From a virus (taxonomy: Duplodnaviria > Heunggongvirae > Uroviricota > Caudoviricetes): a DNA stretch of 64,000 nucleotides. Under the pieces are notes generated by a model. That model searched no databases, had not been told where the DNA came from, and saw only the letters and a program-made list of their open reading frames with translations. Numbering within the stretch: the stretch's first letter is position 1; each line of letters starts with the position of its first letter. Shown piece after piece: positions 3,468 through 57,178 of this stretch. Location of the stretch: positions 64,001 to 128,000 of the IMG/VR virus record IMGVR_UViG_3300029305_001878. The stretch is one strand, 5' to 3'. The position numbers were made by a program, and so were the translations under genes.

Positions 3468-4172
3468 ATGTTATCGATTGCTATTTACAGTGACAATTTA
3501 AATGACGCACGACTTCTTCAATCAAAAATTTAGGATTTTCTTGTAGAGAATAAAATTTTAGCAAAAACTAAAGTATTTGATACAATGGAAAAATTTATTA
3601 CAGTACCTGATACTTTCGATATTTATTTTATGGATATGGACTCAAAAGATGATGTATTAAGCATTGGAAGCCAAATGATAGATATTGACCAACAAAGTTA
3701 TTTTGTATATTGGAGCAGTGATAAAGCATCTGCATATGATGTAACAAAAATTCGTGCAAATTACTTCTTATTAAAACCCATAGAACCTGGAGACTTGGAA
3801 GGTATTATGAATAGTATCAAGAAAAGAATTAAAAAAGATACTGTTATAATAAAAACTCCAGAAGGAGATAGAAGAGTATACACCAATGATTTAAATTATG
3901 TTAATATTGTAAAAAGGTGTACGTGTTATCATTTAGTAGACGGTGCAGTATTTGATGGATAGACACTGCGCGGCGCATTTGAAAAAGAAATATATCCATT
4001 ACAAGAACATCCTAAATTAGCATTTATTCCACCAAGTTTATTAGTTAATATGACAAATATTAAAATATTAAACAAAGAAAGTGCAACTTTTGACAATGAT
4101 GATGTTATATATTTGCCAAAGAAAGCATATGATATCATAAAAAACAAATGGTTTTTATATAACCAAATATAA
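3468..4172 (+). CDS. LytTR-family (AgrA/ComE-like) response-regulator-type transcription factor, with 2 in-frame TAG codons
   Basis: ATG 3468 with a strong SD. The N-terminal region is REC-like (…YFLLKP…). TAG at 3531-3533 and 3960-3962. The C-terminal continuation TLRGAFEKEIYPLQEHPKLAFIPPSLLVNMTNIKILNKE… is a LytTR DNA-binding domain. TAA at 4170-4172. Confidence 0.6.
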
Positions 4173-4214
4173 AAAAAATAAGGCTCGTATCAATTAAGAT
4201 ACGAGCCTTATTTT
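4173..4214. terminator. bidirectional intrinsic terminator
   Basis: aaggctcgtatc…gatacgagcctt hairpin flanked by A-run and T-run. Confidence 0.6.
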
Positions 4215-4604
4215 TTATTTTTTATTAAGATTTACACTTGCTTCAATTTTTTTACTTATATAAGTATCTAAATCTCCAACTACTGTTGCTAAATATTCTT
4301 TAGCATCATCTGTTAGAATTAACATAACCGCGTCGGCTGACTTTTTAAAAGCCTCTTTTTGCGCTTCAATAGTAAATTCGCCTTTACTTTTTAAACTTTC
4401 AACATAAGTTTGATTTGTAGCAATAACGCAATCAGTAATTGTCTTTTCTAATAATGTCATATACTTATCATATTGAGCATTATTAGTTTTTTCTTTTACT
4501 TCTTTCATATGAGTATTTAACCATTTAATAAAATAAGTAGTTAAAACTCCTAACAGAGGTATAATACATACTTCAAAAATTTGAGCAATTAATCCAATTT
4601 CCAT
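4215..4604 (-). CDS. membrane protein with N-terminal TM helix and coiled-coil (holin/XhlA-like?)
   Basis: Intact 129-aa ORF with GGAGG RBS and TAA stop. Hydrophobic N-terminus IAQIFEVCIIPLLGVLTTYF. Confidence 0.4.
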   Translation of the reverse strand: MEIGLIAQIFEVCIIPLLGVLTTYFIKWLNTHMKEVKEKTNNAQYDKYMTLLEKTITDCVIATNQTYVESLKSKGEFTIEAQKEAFKKSADAVMLILTDDAKEYLATVVGDLDTYISKKIEASVNLNKK

Positions 4605-27708: not shown

Positions 27709-28770
27709 TTATTTATCCATTTTATCTAAAGCTTTTATAGATATTCTTGTTCTATGAGTCTTAAAAGGCTATGACAAAGAACTAAATATTCCAGTATTTT
27801 CACCATTAATATAATCATCTAAAATGGATTGTGTACTAAATACTTTTATACTTCCATTTAAAGTTGAATCGTTAACTATTAAGAAATCTACCATCTCTTT
27901 ATTACTATTACTATCTAACAAACCCAATCCAACTAATTCATAAGTTGAATAAATATGTCCTAAATGTTTCAAAATTAAACTTTTATGTTCATTATGAAAA
28001 TCATAACAATTTTTCATTCTATAATACTAATCATATATTCTTTTATAGCTATAATTTGTAACAGCTCCAACCACACTAGCATACATTCTAAAAGAATTTG
28101 TACGACCTAGTTTTGATGCCTCAAAATGTTTTGAATTTTTTAAAGAAAATCTAAATGCTTTTAATATAGAAAAAGCTCTCAAAGCTTTCGCACTAGCTTT
28201 ATAATCAATATTTATATGAATATTAAAATTTGAACCAGCGAAATCGGTTTTTCCATATCTTTCAACTAAAGCTTGCCTTGTTAATGTGTTATAATTATTC
28301 TAATCTTCTTTTACTATATTTTGAATTTCCTTTTGATAATCAGTAATTCTTTTTTTAGTCCCATTTTTATTTATATTAATAACAGCATTTGTTTTACCTA
28401 ATCCACCTAAATTAAAGCTCCCCTATAAATCTTTTAACTATAATCCTTGGTCAAAAAACTATTCAGCAATATTTTTATCTAAAATGCTAGCAATACTTAA
28501 CATTAAAGCCTCAAATTCATTTTCTAATTTATCGCCAGCAATGTTAGCGCTACTTCCTTCATATAAAAATAACTACTATCCACCCAATAAACTATTAACC
28601 CTTTCAGCTAAAAGTCTCATAATAGGGTCATTAGACTAATTAGCATATCTCAACTCATTTAAAAAATCTTCTAAAAACTAGGCAATATCACTTAAACCAT
28701 TATTTCTAGAGTATTTTGTAGCTAAAGATGGATGAACTATATTTTCTAAAAAAAAATCTGTACTTATAGT
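27709..28770 (-). CDS. hypothetical protein A between major tail and TMP genes (tail assembly chaperone candidate), TAG-containing
   Basis: ATG 28768-28770 with GAGAAAGGAGAAAAA RBS. Frame 1 is open through ORF 27769..28017 and TAG 27769 to TAA 27709-27711. Confidence 0.35.
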
Positions 28771-49900: not shown

Positions 49901-50129
49901 GGCGGCTCGCTACCGGGCGCCCTTTCCCTGCAGCGAGCCGAGTTTCACAAAGCAGGGCATTCACACTTTAAATCGTTGAAGTAGGCACTTTCACACATTA
50001 AAGCGCTAATTCCCAAAACTCCCCCAAATTTTTGTGCATTTTGACGAAAACTATTTTTTCAAAATCGGTTGACAAATCCGCATTTATCGAGTAAAATAAG
50101 GTATAACCTAAATCAAGGAGGTCACTACA

Positions 50130-50315
50130 ATGACTACTCTGTTAACTGCTGATTTTGATACCTACACTGCTATTGAAGGTTATGTATTCGATCTTCTGGC
50201 AGACGAAGAAACTGAAGTTGTTCTCTCTGAAATTCAGACTTTTGCTGCTGACCTCGGTGTAGCCTTTACTGAATGGGATTTGACTTCCTTGATGATGGAT
50301 TTTGAAGAAATTTAA
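50130..50315 (+). CDS. early acidic small protein (61 aa)
   Basis: Promoter TTGACA ~50069, CAAGGAGG RBS and TAA. Confidence 0.5.
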   Translation: MTTLLTADFDTYTAIEGYVFDLLADEETEVVLSEIQTFAADLGVAFTEWDLTSLMMDFEEI

Positions 50316-50332
50316 TTTTGGGGGTAATAATT

Positions 50333-50524
50333 ATGTATAAGTACTATTTCCACATTATTGATAACGAATTCAATTCTGAATACGACTATGAGGGTTATTT
50401 TGATAACCACGAAGAAGTCGAACCTTTCATTCAAGATAATGAAAAGGTTGGTAATATTATTACCATTATTTCTCCCTATTATGAATATGTAGACAAGGCA
50501 GATTGCCCGTCTTGTTATCTTTAA
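50333..50524 (+). CDS. early small protein (63 aa, C-terminal CPSC)
   Basis: GGGGG RBS and ATG 50333. The ORF track begins at an upstream TTG. TAA stop. Confidence 0.45.
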   Translation: MYKYYFHIIDNEFNSEYDYEGYFDNHEEVEPFIQDNEKVGNIITIISPYYEYVDKADCPSCYL

Positions 50525-50532
50525 TTTCTCTT

Positions 50533-50575
50533 TTCGTCAAAATGCACAAAAATTTTATTTGTGCATTTTGACGAA
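50533..50575. repeat. perfect ~40-bp palindrome TTCGTCAAAATGCACAAA-N-TTTGTGCATTTTGACGAA
   Basis: Seen directly. Belongs to an 18-mer family also found at ~50028, 50940, 50975, 51018 (inverted), 55285 and 55322. Confidence 0.6.
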
Positions 50576-50599
50576 AATTGGGCCGGCCGGAGACGAACG

Positions 50600-51045
50600 C
50601 GCAGAGGTAGTTGTAGGCCGAACTTTCACACGCTAAAGCGTTAGCGAATTAAAGCGTGAAAGCGGCACTTCATCGATGTAAAGCGCTAAATCCCGAAAGC
50701 GCACTTCATTTGACTAAATCGCTAAAGTGATTGTTTATTTAACTTTTCACTTTTCTTTATTTGACTAAAGCGCTAAATCGGTAAAGTGATTGTTTGTTTA
50801 ACTTTTCACTTTTATTCATTTGACTAAAGCGCTAAAGTCCGAAAGTGCCCAAGGGCCCCGGAACTTTCACGAATTAAAGTGCTACAGAATTAAATCGCTA
50901 AAGTGGCACTTCATTACGCTAAAGCGCTAATTCCCTAAAGTTTTGTGCATTTTGACGAATTTATTTGACTAAATCGCTAAATTTGTGCAATTTGACGAAT
51001 TCATTTGACTAAAGTATTAAATTCGTCAAATTGCACAAACTTTTC
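50600..51045. repeat. ~450-bp non-coding repeat field (TTGACTAAAG/CGCTAAAG units, a direct repeat TTAACTTTTCACTTTT(C/A)TTTATTTGACTAAAGCGCTAAA x2, three TTTGTGCA(A/T)TTTGACGAA copies)
   Basis: No ORF with an RBS. Shares its core with the 46298-46485 repeats. Confidence 0.55.
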
Positions 51046-51113
51046 AAAATCGCTTGCAATTCGTAAAATATGTAGTATAATAGTACCATAAGATAAAGAA
51101 AGGAATTGATACT

Positions 51114-51590
51114 ATGAAGAACTTGCCGAAGATGATTTGTTTCGATATGGATGGAACGATTGCCGACCTGTACTCTGTCAGTGGATGGCTTGAGGACTTG
51201 AGAGCGGAAAACCCTAGACCCTACCTTGAAGCCACCCCAATGTGCGATATGTGCGCACTGCGTGAAGTGTTGGAGCAGTTCCGCCAGATGGGAACAGAAA
51301 TTCGTATCATCACTTGGCTGTCTATGAACAGCACCGAAGAATACAAGGAAGCAGTACGAACCGCAAAGTTGGCTTGGCTTAACAAGTGGAATTTCCTGTT
51401 TGACAATTTCCACGGCGTGCAGTATGGAGCAACAAAGGCAGACAGTATTCGCAAGTATTTGTCCGATGGTGAAACTGCTATTTTGATTGACGATAACGCA
51501 AAGGTAAGAAGCGGTTGGCATATGGGCGAAGCAGTAAACCCGATCGAAACTGATATCGTTGCTTTCCTGCGTGGACTTTTGGAAGATTAA
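51114..51590 (+). CDS. HAD-superfamily phosphatase / 5'-nucleotidase-like protein
   Basis: Motif I FDMDGTIADL (DxDGT) and motif IV ILIDDNAK. Promoter TTGCAA-N-TATAAT ~51048-51078. Conserved translation-initiation region GAAAGGAATTGATACTATG. Confidence 0.6.
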   Translation: MKNLPKMICFDMDGTIADLYSVSGWLEDLRAENPRPYLEATPMCDMCALREVLEQFRQMGTEIRIITWLSMNSTEEYKEAVRTAKLAWLNKWNFLFDNFHGVQYGATKADSIRKYLSDGETAILIDDNAKVRSGWHMGEAVNPIETDIVAFLRGLLED

Positions 51591-52463: not shown

Positions 52464-52617
52464 TCGAAATATGGGGAGAAAAAAATCTCCCCCAATTTCA
52501 AAAATATTTCTTGACTTTTGAAAGTCTATCGCTTATAATAGTTAGTGTAAGGGATAACCCCTCACAAAATAAATCAAAGACAGGTTCAAGTCTTAAAAAC
52601 CGAAAGGAATTGATACT

Positions 52618-53037
52618 ATGAAAAAGTTCACTAAGAGAGAAAGCCTGACTGCCATTTCCAATGTCCTGAATGAACTGCTTGTCGCAGAGGGCAACACGGT
52701 TCTCGCCAATGTCAAGGACAAGGAATACACCGTACAGGATGCATTGGAATTTTGTTCCAACGAAATCAGCCTGTTGGACAAGAAGAACGGCACGGTAAAG
52801 AAGCCGACCGACAAGCAGATGCAGAACGAAAACTACAAGGAAGCAATTCTGCGTTATCTGCGAGAGGTTGCCCCGGAACACAAGGCAATCGCCGAAATTT
52901 GGGATAGCGTGGAAATGCTCGCAAGTAATCCCGATATGACCGGTCAGAGAATTTCCGCTCTGATTACACAGTTGAAGAACGAGAACAAGATTGTTCGAGT
53001 TGAGGAAAAGCGGAAAGCCTATTTCAAGGCAGTATAA
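52618..53037 (+). CDS. winged-helix DNA-binding protein, paralog A (139 aa)
   Basis: C-terminal ~70 aa (…YLREVAPEHKAIAEIWD…PDMTGQRISALITQLKNENKIVRVEEKRKAYFKA) are near-identical to 54407..54817, including at the DNA level. Promoter ~52510 contains the palindrome GACTTTTGAAAGTC. Conserved translation-initiation region. Confidence 0.55.
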   Translation: MKKFTKRESLTAISNVLNELLVAEGNTVLANVKDKEYTVQDALEFCSNEISLLDKKNGTVKKPTDKQMQNENYKEAILRYLREVAPEHKAIAEIWDSVEMLASNPDMTGQRISALITQLKNENKIVRVEEKRKAYFKAV

Positions 53038-53529: not shown

Positions 53530-53715
53530 ATGACAAGGGAAATGCTAGAAATTGAATACCAGACTGCTTGGGAAACAATGCAGGAAGCAGAGCGAAATTA
53601 TAAAATGGCTCGCGCAAACTTTCACGATGTTGCAGGATTGCTAATGGAAAAGTTGATGCTTGAAAATGTGGATGTGCTTGCGCGATTGCGCGAAGCAGAC
53701 ACCCCTACGATTTAA
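53530..53715 (+). CDS. early small coiled-coil protein (61 aa)
   Basis: GTGAGG RBS and ATG 53530. TAA, followed by the bidirectional terminator gtgtgcgcggctggcgcacac. Confidence 0.45.
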   Translation: MTREMLEIEYQTAWETMQEAERNYKMARANFHDVAGLLMEKLMLENVDVLARLREADTPTI

Positions 53716-53760
53716 CCAATTAAAGTGTGCGCGGCTGGCGCACACTTTATTTTATTAAAG

Positions 53761-53816
53761 TTATCGATATACTTTTATCGATATATTTCATTTTTATCGA
53801 TATATTTTTATCGATA
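53761..53816. repeat. four iterons of the palindromic 9-mer TTATCGATA at 15-18-bp spacing
   Basis: Copies at 53761, 53775, 53794 and 53808. Flanked by two hairpins and the motif TTTAGTCAAATGAAG. Confidence 0.6.
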
Positions 53817-53835
53817 ACTTTAACGCTTTAGTCAA

Positions 53836-53915
53836 ATGAAGCGCCGGGCGCTGACGTACGATGCTCCCACGTCAGCGCCGGAATTTCCATTATACCACAC
53901 CGCCAGCATTTTGTC
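53836..53915 (-). promoter_or_regulatory. leftward promoter (TTGACA-N17-TATAAT on the minus strand) firing through a 12-bp-stem hairpin and the iteron array
   Basis: Revcomp of 53880-53912 is gcTTGACAaaatgctggcggtgtggTATAATgg. Hairpin cgggcgctgacgt…acgtcagcgccgg at 53840-53880. No minus-strand ORF downstream. Confidence 0.4.
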
Positions 53916-53923
53916 AAGCAAAA

Positions 53924-54035
53924 AGTTGCACAAAAATAAATAAATTATTTATCCCGAAATTGTGCAACTTTTTCTGCAAAAGTTACAAATTGTAATTGAC
54001 TTCCTATGAGGTCGGTGTTATAATGTTAGTGTCAA
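53924..54035 (+). promoter_or_regulatory. 13-bp-arm palindrome AAAAGTTGCACAA-N25-TTGTGCAACTTTT plus GTTACAAATTGTAA palindrome overlapping promoter TTGACT-N17-TATAAT
   Basis: An almost identical copy of the whole unit lies at 55452-55535. Confidence 0.55.
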
Positions 54036-54150
54036 GGGGAGATACCTCTGAGCCACATCTATGGTGTGGGGCTACGGTTGGAAGTAGCAATAGACCTTGG
54101 TGCTCATAAAATTGCAATAGATGAGTTGCATAGGAACGCACGAGGATGTG
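54036..54150 (+). ncRNA. candidate small non-coding transcript 1 (promoter-proximal, conserved 5' GTTAGTGTCAAGGGGA leader)
   Basis: A consensus promoter immediately upstream and a second full promoter (TTGACA 54165) downstream. No RBS-led ORF. Contains the hairpin gtgaaaaaattttcac. Confidence 0.25.
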
Positions 54151-54195
54151 AAAAAATTTTCACAGAAACCCCTTGACAAACTCCACCAAGTGTGG

Positions 54196-54310
54196 TACAA
54201 TAAAGGTGTCAAGGGGAATGAGAGACTATCGTCCCCAGTTACAAGGGAGACCACAGGGGATTACATCGGCCGAGTAAGTGGTGTTGCTTGAAAAGAAATT
54301 TGAGAAAATT
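54196..54310 (+). ncRNA. candidate small non-coding transcript 2 (5' GGTGTCAAGGGGAATG)
   Basis: Lies between promoter TTGACA 54165 / TACAAT and promoter TTGACA 54325 / TATAAT. No RBS-led ORF. Contains the hairpin ggggaatgagagactatcgtcccc. Confidence 0.25.
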
Positions 54311-54406
54311 TCTGAAAACCCCTTGACAAATCACCAAGTCTATGATATAATATCAATGTAATCAAGGGAAGGAAAACCCTTAAAAAACCAGAAAGGAATT
54401 GATACT

Positions 54407-54817
54407 ATGGCTAACAAGATGGTAAAGAGAGATTATTTCACTGCTCTGCGTGGCTTCATCGAAGCCCATCCCGAAGTGCATTTCGGCACTGATAAGCATC
54501 CCGACATCCCTATCGGTGATATGCTTGCGTTCGTGGATAACGAACTGACCCTGCTTGCTTCCAAGTCTGGGGCAATCAAGAAGCCCACTGAAAAGCAGAC
54601 TCAGAATGAGGTTTACAAGACCGCTATTCTGCAGTATCTGCGCGAAGTGGCTCCCGAGCATAAGTCCATCGCTGAAATTTGGGATGGCGTGGAAGCCCTT
54701 TCCACTAACCCCGATATGACGGGTCAGAGAATTTCCGCTCTGATTACGCAGTTGAAGAATGACAATCTGATTGTCAGAATCGAAGAGAAGCGCAAGGCTT
54801 ACTTTAAGGCTGCGTAA
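54407..54817 (+). CDS. winged-helix DNA-binding protein, paralog B (136 aa)
   Basis: Same C-terminal domain as 52618..53037. Conserved translation-initiation region GAAAGGAATTGATACTATG. TAA plus terminator (ggggggctaagccccccg). Confidence 0.55.
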   Translation: MANKMVKRDYFTALRGFIEAHPEVHFGTDKHPDIPIGDMLAFVDNELTLLASKSGAIKKPTEKQTQNEVYKTAILQYLREVAPEHKSIAEIWDGVEALSTNPDMTGQRISALITQLKNDNLIVRIEEKRKAYFKAA

Positions 54818-54872
54818 ATGGGCTAACGCCCATTCGGAAATCGGGGGGCTAAGCCCCCCGAAACTTTAATCA

Positions 54873-55289
54873 ATGAAAGGACAAGAAATGTTAACAACTG
54901 AAAAAATTAAAGCCATGGACAAAAAGGCTCAAGAAAAAGGCAAGGAATTTTTTTATTGGGGCTTTTACATTGATTATCTCGGCAATATTATTTGGAAGCC
55001 CGGCACAGCTGCAATTCTGTGGAGACGCAAGAAACAACATGACCGAGATTATTTGAAACCCACGTGTAACCACCGCATGATGGACGGCACAGAATTCCAT
55101 TATTTGTGGGCTATTCCTTTGGCAAAATGGACAACCCGCAAAGTCGAAGAATCTACAATCAACAGACTGAAAGCCGAAAATTTTGGCGAATACATTCTGA
55201 ATGACCGTTTTGTTGATGTAAATCACGCTGAAAGCGTTGATATTATCGTCCGCAAAACCTATACAATTCCCCTTTGTTGTGCAATTTGA
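54873..55289 (+). CDS. early hypothetical protein (133-138 aa)
   Basis: AAAGGACAAGAAATG: the second ATG, at 54888, is the better start. TGA stop. Confidence 0.45.
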   Translation: MKGQEMLTTEKIKAMDKKAQEKGKEFFYWGFYIDYLGNIIWKPGTAAILWRRKKQHDRDYLKPTCNHRMMDGTEFHYLWAIPLAKWTTRKVEESTINRLKAENFGEYILNDRFVDVNHAESVDIIVRKTYTIPLCCAI

Positions 55290-55336
55290 CGAATCCGCCC
55301 CGTAGAAAATGGGGCGGATTTTTTGTGCATTTTGCC

Positions 55337-55440
55337 TATTGACAAATCCAAGCAGATGTGGTATAATGGCCGGCCCTCCACGTGCGCTCGGGCCGGTTTT
55401 TCCATTATACCACGCCTCCCGCATTTTTGTCAAGCGTTTT
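55337..55440. promoter_or_regulatory. face-to-face consensus promoters sharing a GC hairpin (plus: TTGACA-N17-TATAAT 55340-55368; minus: revcomp of 55400-55432)
   Basis: The ggccggccc…gggccgg hairpin plus T5 sits between the two convergent -10 boxes. The minus copy matches the 53880-53912 promoter. Confidence 0.45.
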
Positions 55441-55451
55441 TATAAAAAAAG

Positions 55452-55535
55452 TTGCACAAAATAAAATCCCGAATTTGTGCAACTTTTTCTTGAAAAGTTA
55501 CAATTTGTAATTGACTTCTATGGCTTCTGGATGTA
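55452..55535 (+). promoter_or_regulatory. second copy of the TTGTGCAAC palindrome plus promoter cassette
   Basis: aaaaagttgcacaaa…aatttgtgcaactttt, then gttacaatttgtaattgactt…TATAAT. Confidence 0.5.
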
Positions 55536-55575
55536 TAATGTTAATGTAATCAAAAGAGAGTTCTAGAGGATACCA

Positions 55576-55833
55576 ATGAAAATAATGTCGTTTTGGGTTG
55601 AAAGGGTGGTAAAAATGAAAGAAAAGTTGATCAGACTGTGGGAACGCAAAGAGCGCTACATCATCAATGAATTTTTATTGGAAAACCGCAAAATACTCTT
55701 TTCTCAGGCTTTTGGTGCTTTGGAGTTCGCTATGGAAATGCTTGATAACTGGGATGAAGAGTCCAAACTTATCGATCTGTGGGAAAATGAATGGAAAGCA
55801 AGACTGGAGGATAAAATCTATGAAGTGCGTTGA
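55576..55833 (+). CDS. early hypothetical protein (72-85 aa)
   Basis: Two candidate ATGs (55576, 55615). TGA stop. Confidence 0.4.
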   Translation: MKIMSFWVERVVKMKEKLIRLWERKERYIINEFLLENRKILFSQAFGALEFAMEMLDNWDEESKLIDLWENEWKARLEDKIYEVR

Positions 55834-55945
55834 TTGTGTAATGAGTTGGATAGACCCCGGCGAAGAATACCCCACTTGTCACGCAGACCCTAACTGGCCT
55901 GCACCTTGTGAATATGACGATTATGAAGAAGAGAGGGAATATTAA
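55820..55945 (+). CDS. small Cys-rich zinc-ribbon-like protein (41 aa)
   Basis: GGAGGA RBS and ATG 55820. MKCVDCV…PTCH…PCEY. Confidence 0.35.
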   Translation: MKCVDCVMSWIDPGEEYPTCHADPNWPAPCEYDDYEEEREY

Positions 55946-55946
55946 G

Positions 55947-56105
55947 ATGGAAATTAAATGTCCTTATTGCGGAAGTAAAGAGTACGAATGTTATGATAGA
56001 GTCGGTGATGGAACAATGCAGCCTGAAGACTTATGCGTTTGTGAGGCGTGTGATAAAGAATTTTCCATAGTCTATGCGGTTGACTATATCAAGAAAGAGA
56101 GTTGA
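55947..56105 (+). CDS. small zinc-ribbon protein (52 aa; CPYC…CEAC)
   Basis: AGAGGGAA RBS and ATG 55947. TGA inside a terminator (gagagtt…aactctc). Confidence 0.45.
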   Translation: MEIKCPYCGSKEYECYDRVGDGTMQPEDLCVCEACDKEFSIVYAVDYIKKES

Positions 56106-56172
56106 AAAAACTCTCTTTTTTTTATGCAAATTGACTATTGACAAATTGCGGCGACCTGTGGTATAATAAAGA

Positions 56173-56335
56173 GATAGGGCTTGCCTTCGGCGGGTCGGCC
56201 GCGGCAGCAAGGACCCGAATTCCCGATCGGGTAACCATATGCAAATTTTTCTGTGCATCAAGCGATATATGCCTTTATTCCCGTGCATCCCGAAACCTTA
56301 ATCTACTTAATGGGCGTTTTACGCCCATTAAAGAA
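56173..56335 (+). ncRNA. candidate GC-rich structured sRNA (~160 nt) with its own extended -10 promoter and terminator
   Basis: Promoter TTGACA 56140 / TGgTATAAT. Stems gccTTCGgc, ggccgcggc and cccgatcggg. Ends at aatgggcg…cgcccatt. The only internal ATG ORF is 20 aa and lacks an RBS. The listed ORF 56138..56347 starts at the TTG of the -35 box. Confidence 0.3.
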
Positions 56336-56346
56336 ATCCACACTTG

Positions 56347-56540
56347 ACTTTTTTTAAAAAATATGATATAATATTAAAAAAAACCTAAATTTTTGCCGCT
56401 TTTCCGCCCTTTTTGCCTAATCCAGAAGCAGAAAACTTGACTTTTCTTAAAAAATATGATATAATTATAAAAAAAACCTAAAAATTTCGCGCAAAAACGC
56501 ACTTTTCTTGACAAAATTAAAAAAAAATGGTATAATATTT
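56347..56540 (+). promoter_or_regulatory. three tandem near-consensus promoters upstream of gene 56575
   Basis: TTGACT-N17-TATAAT at ~56347 and ~56437. TTGACA-N-TGgTATAAT at ~56508. Confidence 0.5.
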
Positions 56541-56574
56541 ATAGAAAATAAGAAAAAAATGGAGGATTTATTAA

Positions 56575-56954
56575 TGTTTAACTATGAAGATATCCTGGCT
56601 ATGATGCAGAATGGTGCTAGTGCAGAAGATGTAGCAAAGGAATTCACCGATTCTCTGAATCAGGCTATTAAGGTCCAGGAGGCAGAGAAGGAAAAGATTG
56701 CGGCCAAGGCTGCGGTGACCGCTGACGCGCAGAAGGTGGCTGACGCATTCAACGAGTTTACTGCCAAGCACTATGCCGACGTTGCGTCCGGTGCGAAGAT
56801 TACTGCTGAAGATGTTCTTACTATTTATGATTTGGTATCTAGTCTTAATATTAATTTTAATAAGTTAAAGAACGGCGTTGCTGTTACTTATCATAAAATG
56901 GACGATGCAGTAGATGAAATTATCGAAAAATTCTTCGATAAGTATGGTCTGTGA
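56575..56954 (+). CDS. early hypothetical protein (126 aa)
   Basis: GGAGGA RBS, ATG 56575 and TGA. Twin strong hairpins follow. Confidence 0.5.
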
Positions 56955-56987: not shown

Positions 56988-57178
56988 ATAACCTACCTCC
57001 TAGTTAGCCCAGTTATGAGGACAGGAGGTAGGACGGAGACGGAAAATTTTATAGTGGGTAGGTGTCCCGATCGGGGCCACACCTACCCACTCATTTTTTT
57101 TATTTATTCACTCATTTTTTTTATTTATTCACTCATTTTTTTTATTTATCTACTTATTTCTTTTTATTTATTTTATAT
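56988..57178. terminator. twin GC hairpins (bidirectional terminator) followed by three 22-bp tandem repeats ACTCATTTTTTTTATTTATTC
   Basis: acctacctcct…aggaggtagg and gggtaggtgtcccgatcggggccacacctaccc. The repeats lie at 57095-57178. Confidence 0.5.

Follow-up and report, generated by a model that had tools for sequence, protein, structure and literature searches.

Stacked promoters and proposed non-coding leader modules before two small early genes of a TAG-recoded gut phage

The window analysed here is a stretch of 64,000 nucleotides (nt), positions 64,001 to 128,000 of IMG/VR record IMGVR_UViG_3300029305_001878, from a gut phage of ~185 kb; its sequence also forms part, without differences, of JGI contig Ga0318466_10001127 (185.5 kb). 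On its minus strand (700-43556), open reading frames (ORFs) of up to 2,886 amino acids (aa), with as many as 52 in-frame TAGs, are visible only with TAG readthrough, and the phage is thus TAG-recoded, reading TAG as an amino acid (code 15). A plus-strand block at 43.6-57 kb, the early region, uses the standard code for small genes led by Shine-Dalgarno (SD) sequences, with a G+C content of 38-42% as compared with ~29% elsewhere. Two gaps between its genes are treated here (Table 1): an array of three promoters, (b), before the gene for a 136-aa protein at 54407, and a promoter-driven element, (a), before the gene for a 126-aa protein. For both, an original prediction had proposed discrete, terminated small RNAs (sRNAs). 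We find in (a) a conserved RNA element of about 30 members with a usable covariance model, and in (b) transcript leaders that match the sequence at the next -35 box; perhaps both are leader modules of the genes that follow them.

Loci L001-L010, obtained by exact-protein look-ups, are identical copies of the window and thus uninformative for comparison. Scans of viral-contig DNA and scans with single proteins found no relatives, and a metagenome pattern scan gave 12 chance matches and one true match, an incomplete locus (L026). Among the scans of viral contigs, a profile search alone reached relatives, with 198 tblastn hits and 64 IMG/VR loci from phages of 100-200 kb; the syntenic contigs L012-L045 were reached via homologues of the 136-aa and 126-aa proteins. 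Both gaps stay gaps in all syntenic loci collected. The sole GenBank phage match by blastn is to phAss-1 ('code 15 clade'), over a convergent-promoter module described below. The description of phAss-1, which makes no mention of promoters or non-coding RNA, predicted Clostridia hosts (PMC10607447), and a 158-kb contig of one relative was binned with a sheep-colon Bacilli metagenome-assembled genome; for the phage studied here we infer a host among the Bacillota.

Promoters are dense in the early region. At 50-60 kb there are 60 promoter-like sites, as against 33.9 ± 5.3 in shuffles, and 15 sites match the consensus at 11 or more of 12 positions, most of them carrying a TG extension. Window and relatives together hold 216-223 distinct promoters of this quality, so that almost all small genes of the early region come with a consensus sigma-70 promoter of their own. 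The sequence before these promoters is A/T-rich and UP-like, and in the tandem array the small A/T hairpins that precede the -35 boxes likewise look like UP elements. The three tandem promoters originally predicted before 54407 are borne out, at 11, 11 and 12 of 12 positions, as is the extended -10 promoter of (a), a perfect match.

No terminators follow the promoters of the two gaps before the downstream genes. Scans of the plus strand found none at 54025-54406, nor any at 56168-56573 between (a) and the 126-aa gene, and in three relatives (L033, L034, L093) element (a) abuts the next promoter directly. The lengths of about 115 nt proposed for the tandem-promoter RNAs are thus unsupported, and the same goes for the discrete RNA of about 160 nt proposed for (a): transcripts would read into the next promoter and gene. 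What had been taken for the terminator of (a) is a hairpin without a U tract, missing from the terminator scan and confined to the window's clade. The prediction that these regions lack credible ORFs stands, whether or not TAG is read as sense: the substitutions in (a), split 17/14/13 over the three codon positions, show no codon periodicity; ATG 54061, which starts the sole TAG-readthrough ORF of segment 1, is GCG in the closest relative, L032; and a 19-aa ORF at 54219 is missing from the L038 homologue.

The core of element (a) comprises ~110 nt (window 56186-56302) and can be aligned across nine close relatives. Its nt identity is 80-86%, against 63-67% nt (about 50% aa) for the adjacent 126-aa gene, and purifying selection on the element is supported by this difference. 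A covariance model, R1, built from 12 copies, finds exactly one strong copy per locus and also gives 36-62-bit copies in about 25 IMG/VR phages; the element is present in about 30 related phages. The element always lies upstream of AT-rich tandem promoters and a homologue of the same 126-aa gene, in most relatives with a 12/12 promoter directly 5' of it. Two loci of distant relatives, L045 (JAFVUY010000119.1) 4018-4240 and L039 13712-13960, carry two tandem (a)-like copies, one of them degenerate, without a consensus promoter before them.

Hairpin H1 of the core covaries, with a score of 0.163 against 0.090 ± 0.016 in shuffles (0/500) and five pairs altered on both sides; it has many G-U pairs, which are possible on the plus strand only. 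The element as a whole folds only marginally better than shuffles (z = -1.9) and its other helices did not find support. Among those rejected are the ATGCA/TGCAT and CGG/CCG stems, invariant in close relatives (87/500 shuffles) and lost in distant ones, and a helix between the CATATG/CATATG flanks, which pairs in only 43% of cases. The predicted UUCG tetraloop falls in the variable stretch 56168-90, is absent or different in relatives, and does not form in the minimum free energy fold. Conservation of the 3' half is at the sequence level, and the flanks of its two CATATG copies do not pair. Rfam 15 gave no match at or above the gathering threshold in the window and, at E ≤ 10, nothing credible at 53600-56700; nor did it yield a family for (a) in the loci of 25 relatives, with no matches in 17 relatives (142 kb). 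The Rfam and covariation search advised with the original prediction thus returned the covariation of H1 and no known family, and element (a) is a new, previously undescribed RNA family, whose presumed function is taken up below.

The linker that follows H1 includes the octamer CCGATCGG, which occurs twice in the 64 kb, against 0.17 times expected, despite GATC standing at 0.16 of expectation. The second copy (57067-57074) tops the terminator hairpin of the 126-aa gene, and leader positions 56221-56231 are complementary to 57066-57076 (duplex -28.4 kcal/mol). Every relative examined has this upstream/downstream arrangement. Across ten close relatives, the variable pair 12-49 is U-A in four, U-G in three and C-G in three, never C-A; 95% of cells are paired at the leader and terminator sites of 10 phages; and in L050 the complementarity is lengthened to about 20 bp. 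Recurrence of the linker octamer only at the terminator top of the 126-aa gene suggests a 5'-3' RNA contact, or operator sites. On these sequences, the leader and terminator loop of the 126-aa mRNA may be in contact, with an operator as the alternative. A literature search found nothing relevant on CCGATCGG or on tandem-promoter RNA arrays.

In array (b), the predicted sharing of a leader motif proved accurate: (T/G)TGT(C/A)A..AAGGGGA lies at a fixed offset, 5-6 nt past the -10 box, at five window promoters (52511, 53996, 54173, 54323 and 55511). The motif TGTCAAGGGG is the reverse complement of CCCCTTGACA, that is, of CCCC and the following promoter's -35 box, which would form the 3' strand of a helix closing segment 1 (duplex with 54169-54178, -18.4 kcal/mol). 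The duplex closing segment 2 is put at -21.2 kcal/mol, and neighbouring promoters give stronger leader/-35 duplexes than promoters that are not neighbours (0/2000 permutations). Among 61 distinct tandem pairs, the four bases past GTCAA match the four before TTGAC beyond permuted pairs (0/5000), as GGGG:CCCC (8/9) or GAGG:CCTC (22/34), and also as GAAG:CTTC and GAGGGA:TCCCTC, with matched variants found within single genomes (L038, L041). In the mRNA leaders 52540 and 54357 the partner lies a few bases 3' of the motif, forming a local 5' hairpin. Given this pairing of the motif with CCCC and the next -35 box, every transcript would begin base-paired, beside an SD-like tract; in L015, L034 and L038 the motif is the true SD of a gene. 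A 5'-terminal helix co-varying with the sequence before the next -35 box fits these data better than the binding site for a translational regulator first proposed, and a protein partner for the motif may exist.

The bodies of the segments between the promoters are lineage-specific, so their own function remains putative. Segment 1 has a close counterpart in one relative only, and segment 2 has no relative by blastn and only a faint one overall. Their folds have z scores of -2.7 (plus strand) versus -2.0 (minus) for segment 1 and -2.5 versus -0.9 for segment 2. Segment 2 contains the hairpin GTCCCC-AGTTACAA-GGGAGAC (54231-54251), whose form, CCC-N-ACAA-GGG, is common to L038 P2 and to the tRNA-like cassettes described next.

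Eight relatives have in the same gap 2-4 tandem promoters, each followed by a GC-rich segment of 90-200 nt; the segments differ among phages and recur in varying combinations, as mosaic arrays. (i) One cassette resembles a tRNA: it has an acceptor arm, D arm and T arm, CCA is encoded, and the L033 copy, at 29.0 bits, just reaches the gathering score of the Rfam tRNA model. The place of the 'anticodon' arm is taken by a long hairpin whose loop has 5 nt, YACAA, and whose closing pair covaries (C-G/U-A); the RNA is thus no decoding tRNA, and ARAGORN rejects it. Such segments occur in L032, L033 and L034 only, the window having no cloverleaf or tRNA-like segment by Rfam and ARAGORN; ARAGORN found no tRNA in the 64 kb, hence no suppressor tRNA there. 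(ii) A second, 'type B' cassette of ~190 nt shows compensatory changes in its 5' part. Over the 3' 110 nt its copies in four phages agree at about 100%, with a single mismatch in L036, the flanking proteins of these phages being about 60% identical; such near-identity points to very strong selection or to recent exchange.

Table 1. Positions of the features discussed (window coordinates unless a relative is named)
Feature	Position	Strand	Remarks
Promoter P1, TTGACT-17-TATAAT, TG extended	53996-54024	+	11/12; same position in L012, L032, L033, L034, L036
Leader motif 1, GTTAGTGTCAAGGGGA (discriminator and first transcribed bases)	54025-54040	+	5' strand of closing helix; SD-like purine tract
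Non-coding segment 1 (P1 cassette), GC-rich	54031-54168	+	96.6% identical in L032, absent elsewhere
CCCC and promoter P2, TTGACA-17-TACAAT	54169-54201 (P2 54173-54201)	+	11/12
Leader motif 2, GGTGTCAAGGGGA (54205-54217), and non-coding segment 2	54205-54318	+	
CCCC and promoter P3	54319-54351 (P3 54323-54351)	+	12/12; closes segment 2
mRNA leader of 136-aa gene, 5' hairpin AAGGG-N8-CCCTT and shared initiation region GAAAGGAATTGATACTATG	54357-54409	+	Family D11
136-aa early protein, C-terminal winged-helix fold (confident model, weak fold matches)	54407-54817	+	71 homologues; paralogue of 52618-53037
Face-to-face consensus promoters, +55339-55367 and -55433-55404, around GC hairpin 55370-55396	55339-55433		
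Promoter of element (a), TTGACA-18-TGgTATAAT	56138-56167	+	12/12
Variable 5' segment of (a), including the 'UUCG' stretch	56168-56190	+	Not conserved
Hairpin H1, CGGGTC...GACCCG, variable loop	56191-56217	+	Covariation
Linker TTCCCGATCGGG, conserved; CCGATCGG at 56223-56230	56220-56231	+	
3' half of core, conserved	56236-56296	+	CATATG (56236), A/T run, ATCAAGC, TATATG (56266), TCCCGAAAC (56288-56296)
Clade-specific hairpin without U tract	56309-56329	+	Kept in L032 with compensatory changes; degraded in L017; otherwise absent
Three AT-rich tandem promoters (56344, 56437, 56508) of 126-aa gene	56344-56536	+	D7, D9; all relatives
126-aa early gene, always linked to (a)	56574-56954	+	Model poor
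Terminator hairpin of 126-aa gene, CCGATCGG at top, then T run	57054-57101	+	-29 kcal/mol, z = -6.05
Promoter-driven tRNA-like RNA	L032 2033-2117, L033 2409-2490, L034 3851-3935		
~190-nt non-coding 'type B' cassette	L032 1594-1783, L036 898-1088, L038 3104-3299, L043 9699-9891		

The account that we tentatively prefer, giving it a little short of an even chance, is that both loci are tandem host-type promoters with non-coding leader modules of two small early genes, with stabilising 5' helices and a contact between (a) and the terminator. In (b), the transcript of each promoter would open with (U)GUCAAGGGG, which would pair with a nearby CCCC(U) (leaders 52540 and 54357) or with CCCCUUGAC at the next -35 box (segments 1 and 2). 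No matter which promoter is used, the start of the transcript would be hidden in a helix beside an SD-like purine tract, as in Gram-positive 5' stabilisers; the enclosed segments would vary freely, and relatives would place cargo RNAs there, including the tRNA-like one. Element (a) would be a leader module of ~110 nt, made up of H1, the CCGAUCGG linker and the conserved 3' half; transcription would start at its own promoter and run on past the three AT-rich promoters into the 126-aa gene. The linker could then contact the identical/complementary octamer atop the terminator hairpin 840 nt downstream, a contact that would join both mRNA ends and tune stability or expression. Transcription, stabilising role and 5'-3' contact are what we infer here from sequence.

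Several observations weigh against this account. The covariation between upstream and downstream octamers amounts to one variable pair in 10 related sequences (probability of no C-A ~0.17), and 20/500 shuffles reach the overall score; the downstream octamer can also fold on itself at the hairpin top, and in the L093/L088 subclade CCGATCGG is found within a promoter spacer and a coding region as well. Three relatives (L045, L039, L059) lack a consensus promoter before (a), whose helices other than H1 are unsupported. For (b), the co-variation of motif and -35 region could stem from duplication of whole promoter units, and a stable 5' fold occurs in only 29% of early transcripts versus 15-17% in controls. 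A general rule of 5' hairpins at all early promoters, which holds only in part on those same figures, was rejected.

Of the original interpretation, the promoter-driven, non-coding and functional character of the sequences stands, its 'conserved 5'-leader element' being closest to the evidence, and the discrete sRNAs do not. Its main reading, free-standing and trans-acting sRNAs, would have each promoter-driven segment freed by inefficient termination or RNase processing and acting on host or phage targets; (a) would pair, in trans, with the terminator loop on 126-aa mRNA that starts at the downstream promoters. The arrays of relatives do hold clear RNA genes (the tRNA-like and ~190-nt cassettes), closing helices would yield compact RNAs with protected ends, the P1 and P2 RNAs fold better than shuffles and more so on the plus strand, and (a) sits behind its own consensus promoter in most phages. 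However, terminators are absent, conservation does not extend to the bodies of P1 and P2, antisense matches of P1, P2 and (a) across the 64 kb stay at chance level, and (a) is strictly cis-linked to one gene. We hold leader modules that belong to the genes behind them to be likelier than free-standing sRNAs, and rate the latter as unlikely, though as the alternative that survives best.

Action at the level of DNA is also doubtful, and we place it second among the alternatives. Here CCGATCGG and CATATG would be operators of the 126-aa locus, the inverted TGTCAA...TTGACA repeats would be by-products or substrates of recombination among promoter modules that are nearly identical, and the segments would be shuffling junk. 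The CCGATCGG copies in spacer and coding sequence of L093 and L088 fit a DNA operator, there being 2-5 copies per locus; the two CATATG copies are invariant with flanks that do not pair; the arrays are mosaics in which the cassettes differ and promoters number 2-4, and the promoter/stem-loop (PeSL) cassettes of T4-type phages offer a precedent (PMC2839356, PMC4122927); and adjacent genes encode winged-helix proteins. Against this, H1 covaries with G-U pairs, which would be mismatches in DNA, and 6/10 close relatives have a non-palindromic site, with the variants oriented as RNA pairing needs. The core of (a) is conserved over ~110 nt, far beyond the need of a few operators, and the matching of GGGG:CCCC versus GAGG:CCTC persists within single genomes.

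A bolder proposal, improbable as a whole in our estimate, would see the stacked promoters as a modular platform for abundant small structured early RNAs, each module being closed by a helix with its 3' strand inside the next promoter and modules being swapped between phages. The cargo (tRNA-like, ~190-nt 'type B' and P1/P2 RNAs) might then serve as decoys or regulators in takeover or anti-defence, and (a) might be an RNA dedicated to the 126-aa gene, whose terminator loop it would meet in a kissing contact.

A transcription-activated replication origin, or a similar cis-acting DNA function, would have strong promoters firing into GC hairpins beside AT-rich repeats, as where a GC hairpin separates the minus-strand promoter 53917 from the TATCGATA repeats (53755-53823) towards which it fires, or at the AT-rich tandem repeats 3' of (a). 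The site is marked by neither a replication gene nor a skew signal, the same modules occur several times per genome, and we consider such a function very improbable. Tiny translated ORFs (20 aa at 56239, 19 aa at 54219, TAG-readthrough ORFs) can be set aside almost entirely: open frames exist and the phage reads TAG as sense in late genes, but no SD lies at a workable distance, substitutions lack third-position bias, start codons are not conserved and most changes in the 20-aa frame are non-synonymous.

Between the two gaps, face-to-face consensus promoters flank a GC hairpin; on the plus strand TTTTT follows the hairpin, for a predicted transcript of ~35 nt. The module is kept in L015, L038, L034 and phAss-1, with differing hairpin sequences. 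Consensus promoters point directly into GC-rich hairpins at 55339-55433, 53844-53917, L011 4025-4115 and L015 8684-8778, and candidate roles for the face-to-face arrangement are an insulator, an antisense RNA or a tiny hairpin RNA. Just downstream of the minus-strand promoter 53917, four TATCGATA boxes lie within an AT-rich inverted repeat (53755-53823) adjoining a bidirectional terminator (53721-53749), where relatives carry ACTTTAA-type repeat arrays; these repeats could be an operator array or an origin. Other boxes recur at 50000-51050 and 55267-55339, TTTGTGCATTTTGACGAA in six copies, often just 5' of the -35 box, and TTTGACTAAAGCGCTAAA in five, and are candidate binding sites for winged-helix proteins encoded nearby.

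No function for the neighbouring genes emerged from Pfam or PHROGs. The 136-aa protein has a confident structure model (mean predicted local distance difference test score, pLDDT, 89.7), its matches to Fur/PerR/MarR/SmtB-like folds are weak (E about 5e-3), and a C-terminal winged helix is probably shared with the paralogue at 52618. For the 126-aa protein the model (pLDDT 57) is too poor for a fold search. The translation initiation region GAAAGGAATTGATACTATG is identical at 51098-51116, 52602-52620 and 54391-54409 and is found at many genes in relatives, and in distant relatives a hairpin, AGACAGGTTCAAGTCT, in the 5' untranslated region (UTR) preceding 52618 keeps 96% identity, the protein only about 43%. 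Where the genes switch to the minus strand, three 21-nt tandem repeats (CACTCATTTTTTTTATTTATT, window 57088-57164) immediately follow the 126-aa gene's terminator. Short palindromes are avoided window-wide (CATG 0.06, AGCT 0.07 and GATC 0.16 of expectation); 10/14 AGCT sites are clustered at 27730-28720, and GCGC is enriched ~4-fold.

TAG-reassigning phages are common in animal guts, and their early gene expression has so far been undescribed. The present analysis offers a testable design rule, the 5' end of an early transcript paired to sequence inside the next promoter, as well as a candidate 5'-3' mRNA contact. If true, the leader-module account would explain very high, stable early expression from host RNA polymerase and provide compact parts (strong promoter plus stabilising leader) for Gram-positive gut bacteria. 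The variable segments, including the tRNA-like RNAs, are candidate host-takeover or anti-defence RNAs.

Among known systems, mRNAs of Bacillus subtilis are stabilised when the 5' end is occluded or when an SD lacks a start codon, and an SD-like tract near the 5' end, without a usable start and by or in a 5' stem, is enough to stabilise downstream RNA (PMC3997798). The leaders studied here resemble the ermC, cryIIIA STAB-SD and SP82 stabilisers in having AAGGGGA or AAGAGGA within about 10 nt of the 5' end, with no usable start codon, in or next to a 5' stem; an SD-like tract and/or a paired 5' end is present within the first ~20 nt. Unlike in those stabilisers, the 3' strand of the stem can be 100-130 nt away, overlapping the next -35 box. 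Pairing of 5' and 3' UTRs has precedents in the hbs mRNA of B. subtilis (PMC5737220) and the icaR mRNA of Staphylococcus aureus (PMC3868564). As with these, the gene downstream of (a) has several promoters, encodes a protein that is small and probably abundant, and carries a leader that is long and structured; 10-11 nt of this leader are complementary to the 3' UTR, a length that suits such pairing if at least 8-14 nt are asked for. It differs in that the 3' partner is atop the terminator hairpin (kissing-type) and palindromic, with covariation that is only suggestive and an operator role possible.

PeSL cassettes of T4-type phages drive module shuffling (PMC2839356, PMC4122927). Here too, dense, near-identical strong early promoters of sigma-70 type and stem-loops flank small genes, with mosaic content between them; repeated units of terminator hairpin plus promoter are found at 56100-56167 and 55295-55367, and the mosaic arrays of relatives fit PeSL-type gain, loss and replacement of cassettes. 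Unlike the T4-type phages, this phage is in the code 15 group and has Gram-positive-type signals, and its promoters are stacked without genes between them. The arrays are similar to A1-A2-A3 of phage T7, three strong host RNA polymerase promoters that are spaced by about 100 nt where an early unit begins; the inter-promoter segments of T7 are not known to form closing helices or to carry cargo RNAs. Finally, the array segment with acceptor, D and T arms plus CCA in L032, L033 and L034 recalls the tRNA genes of phages.

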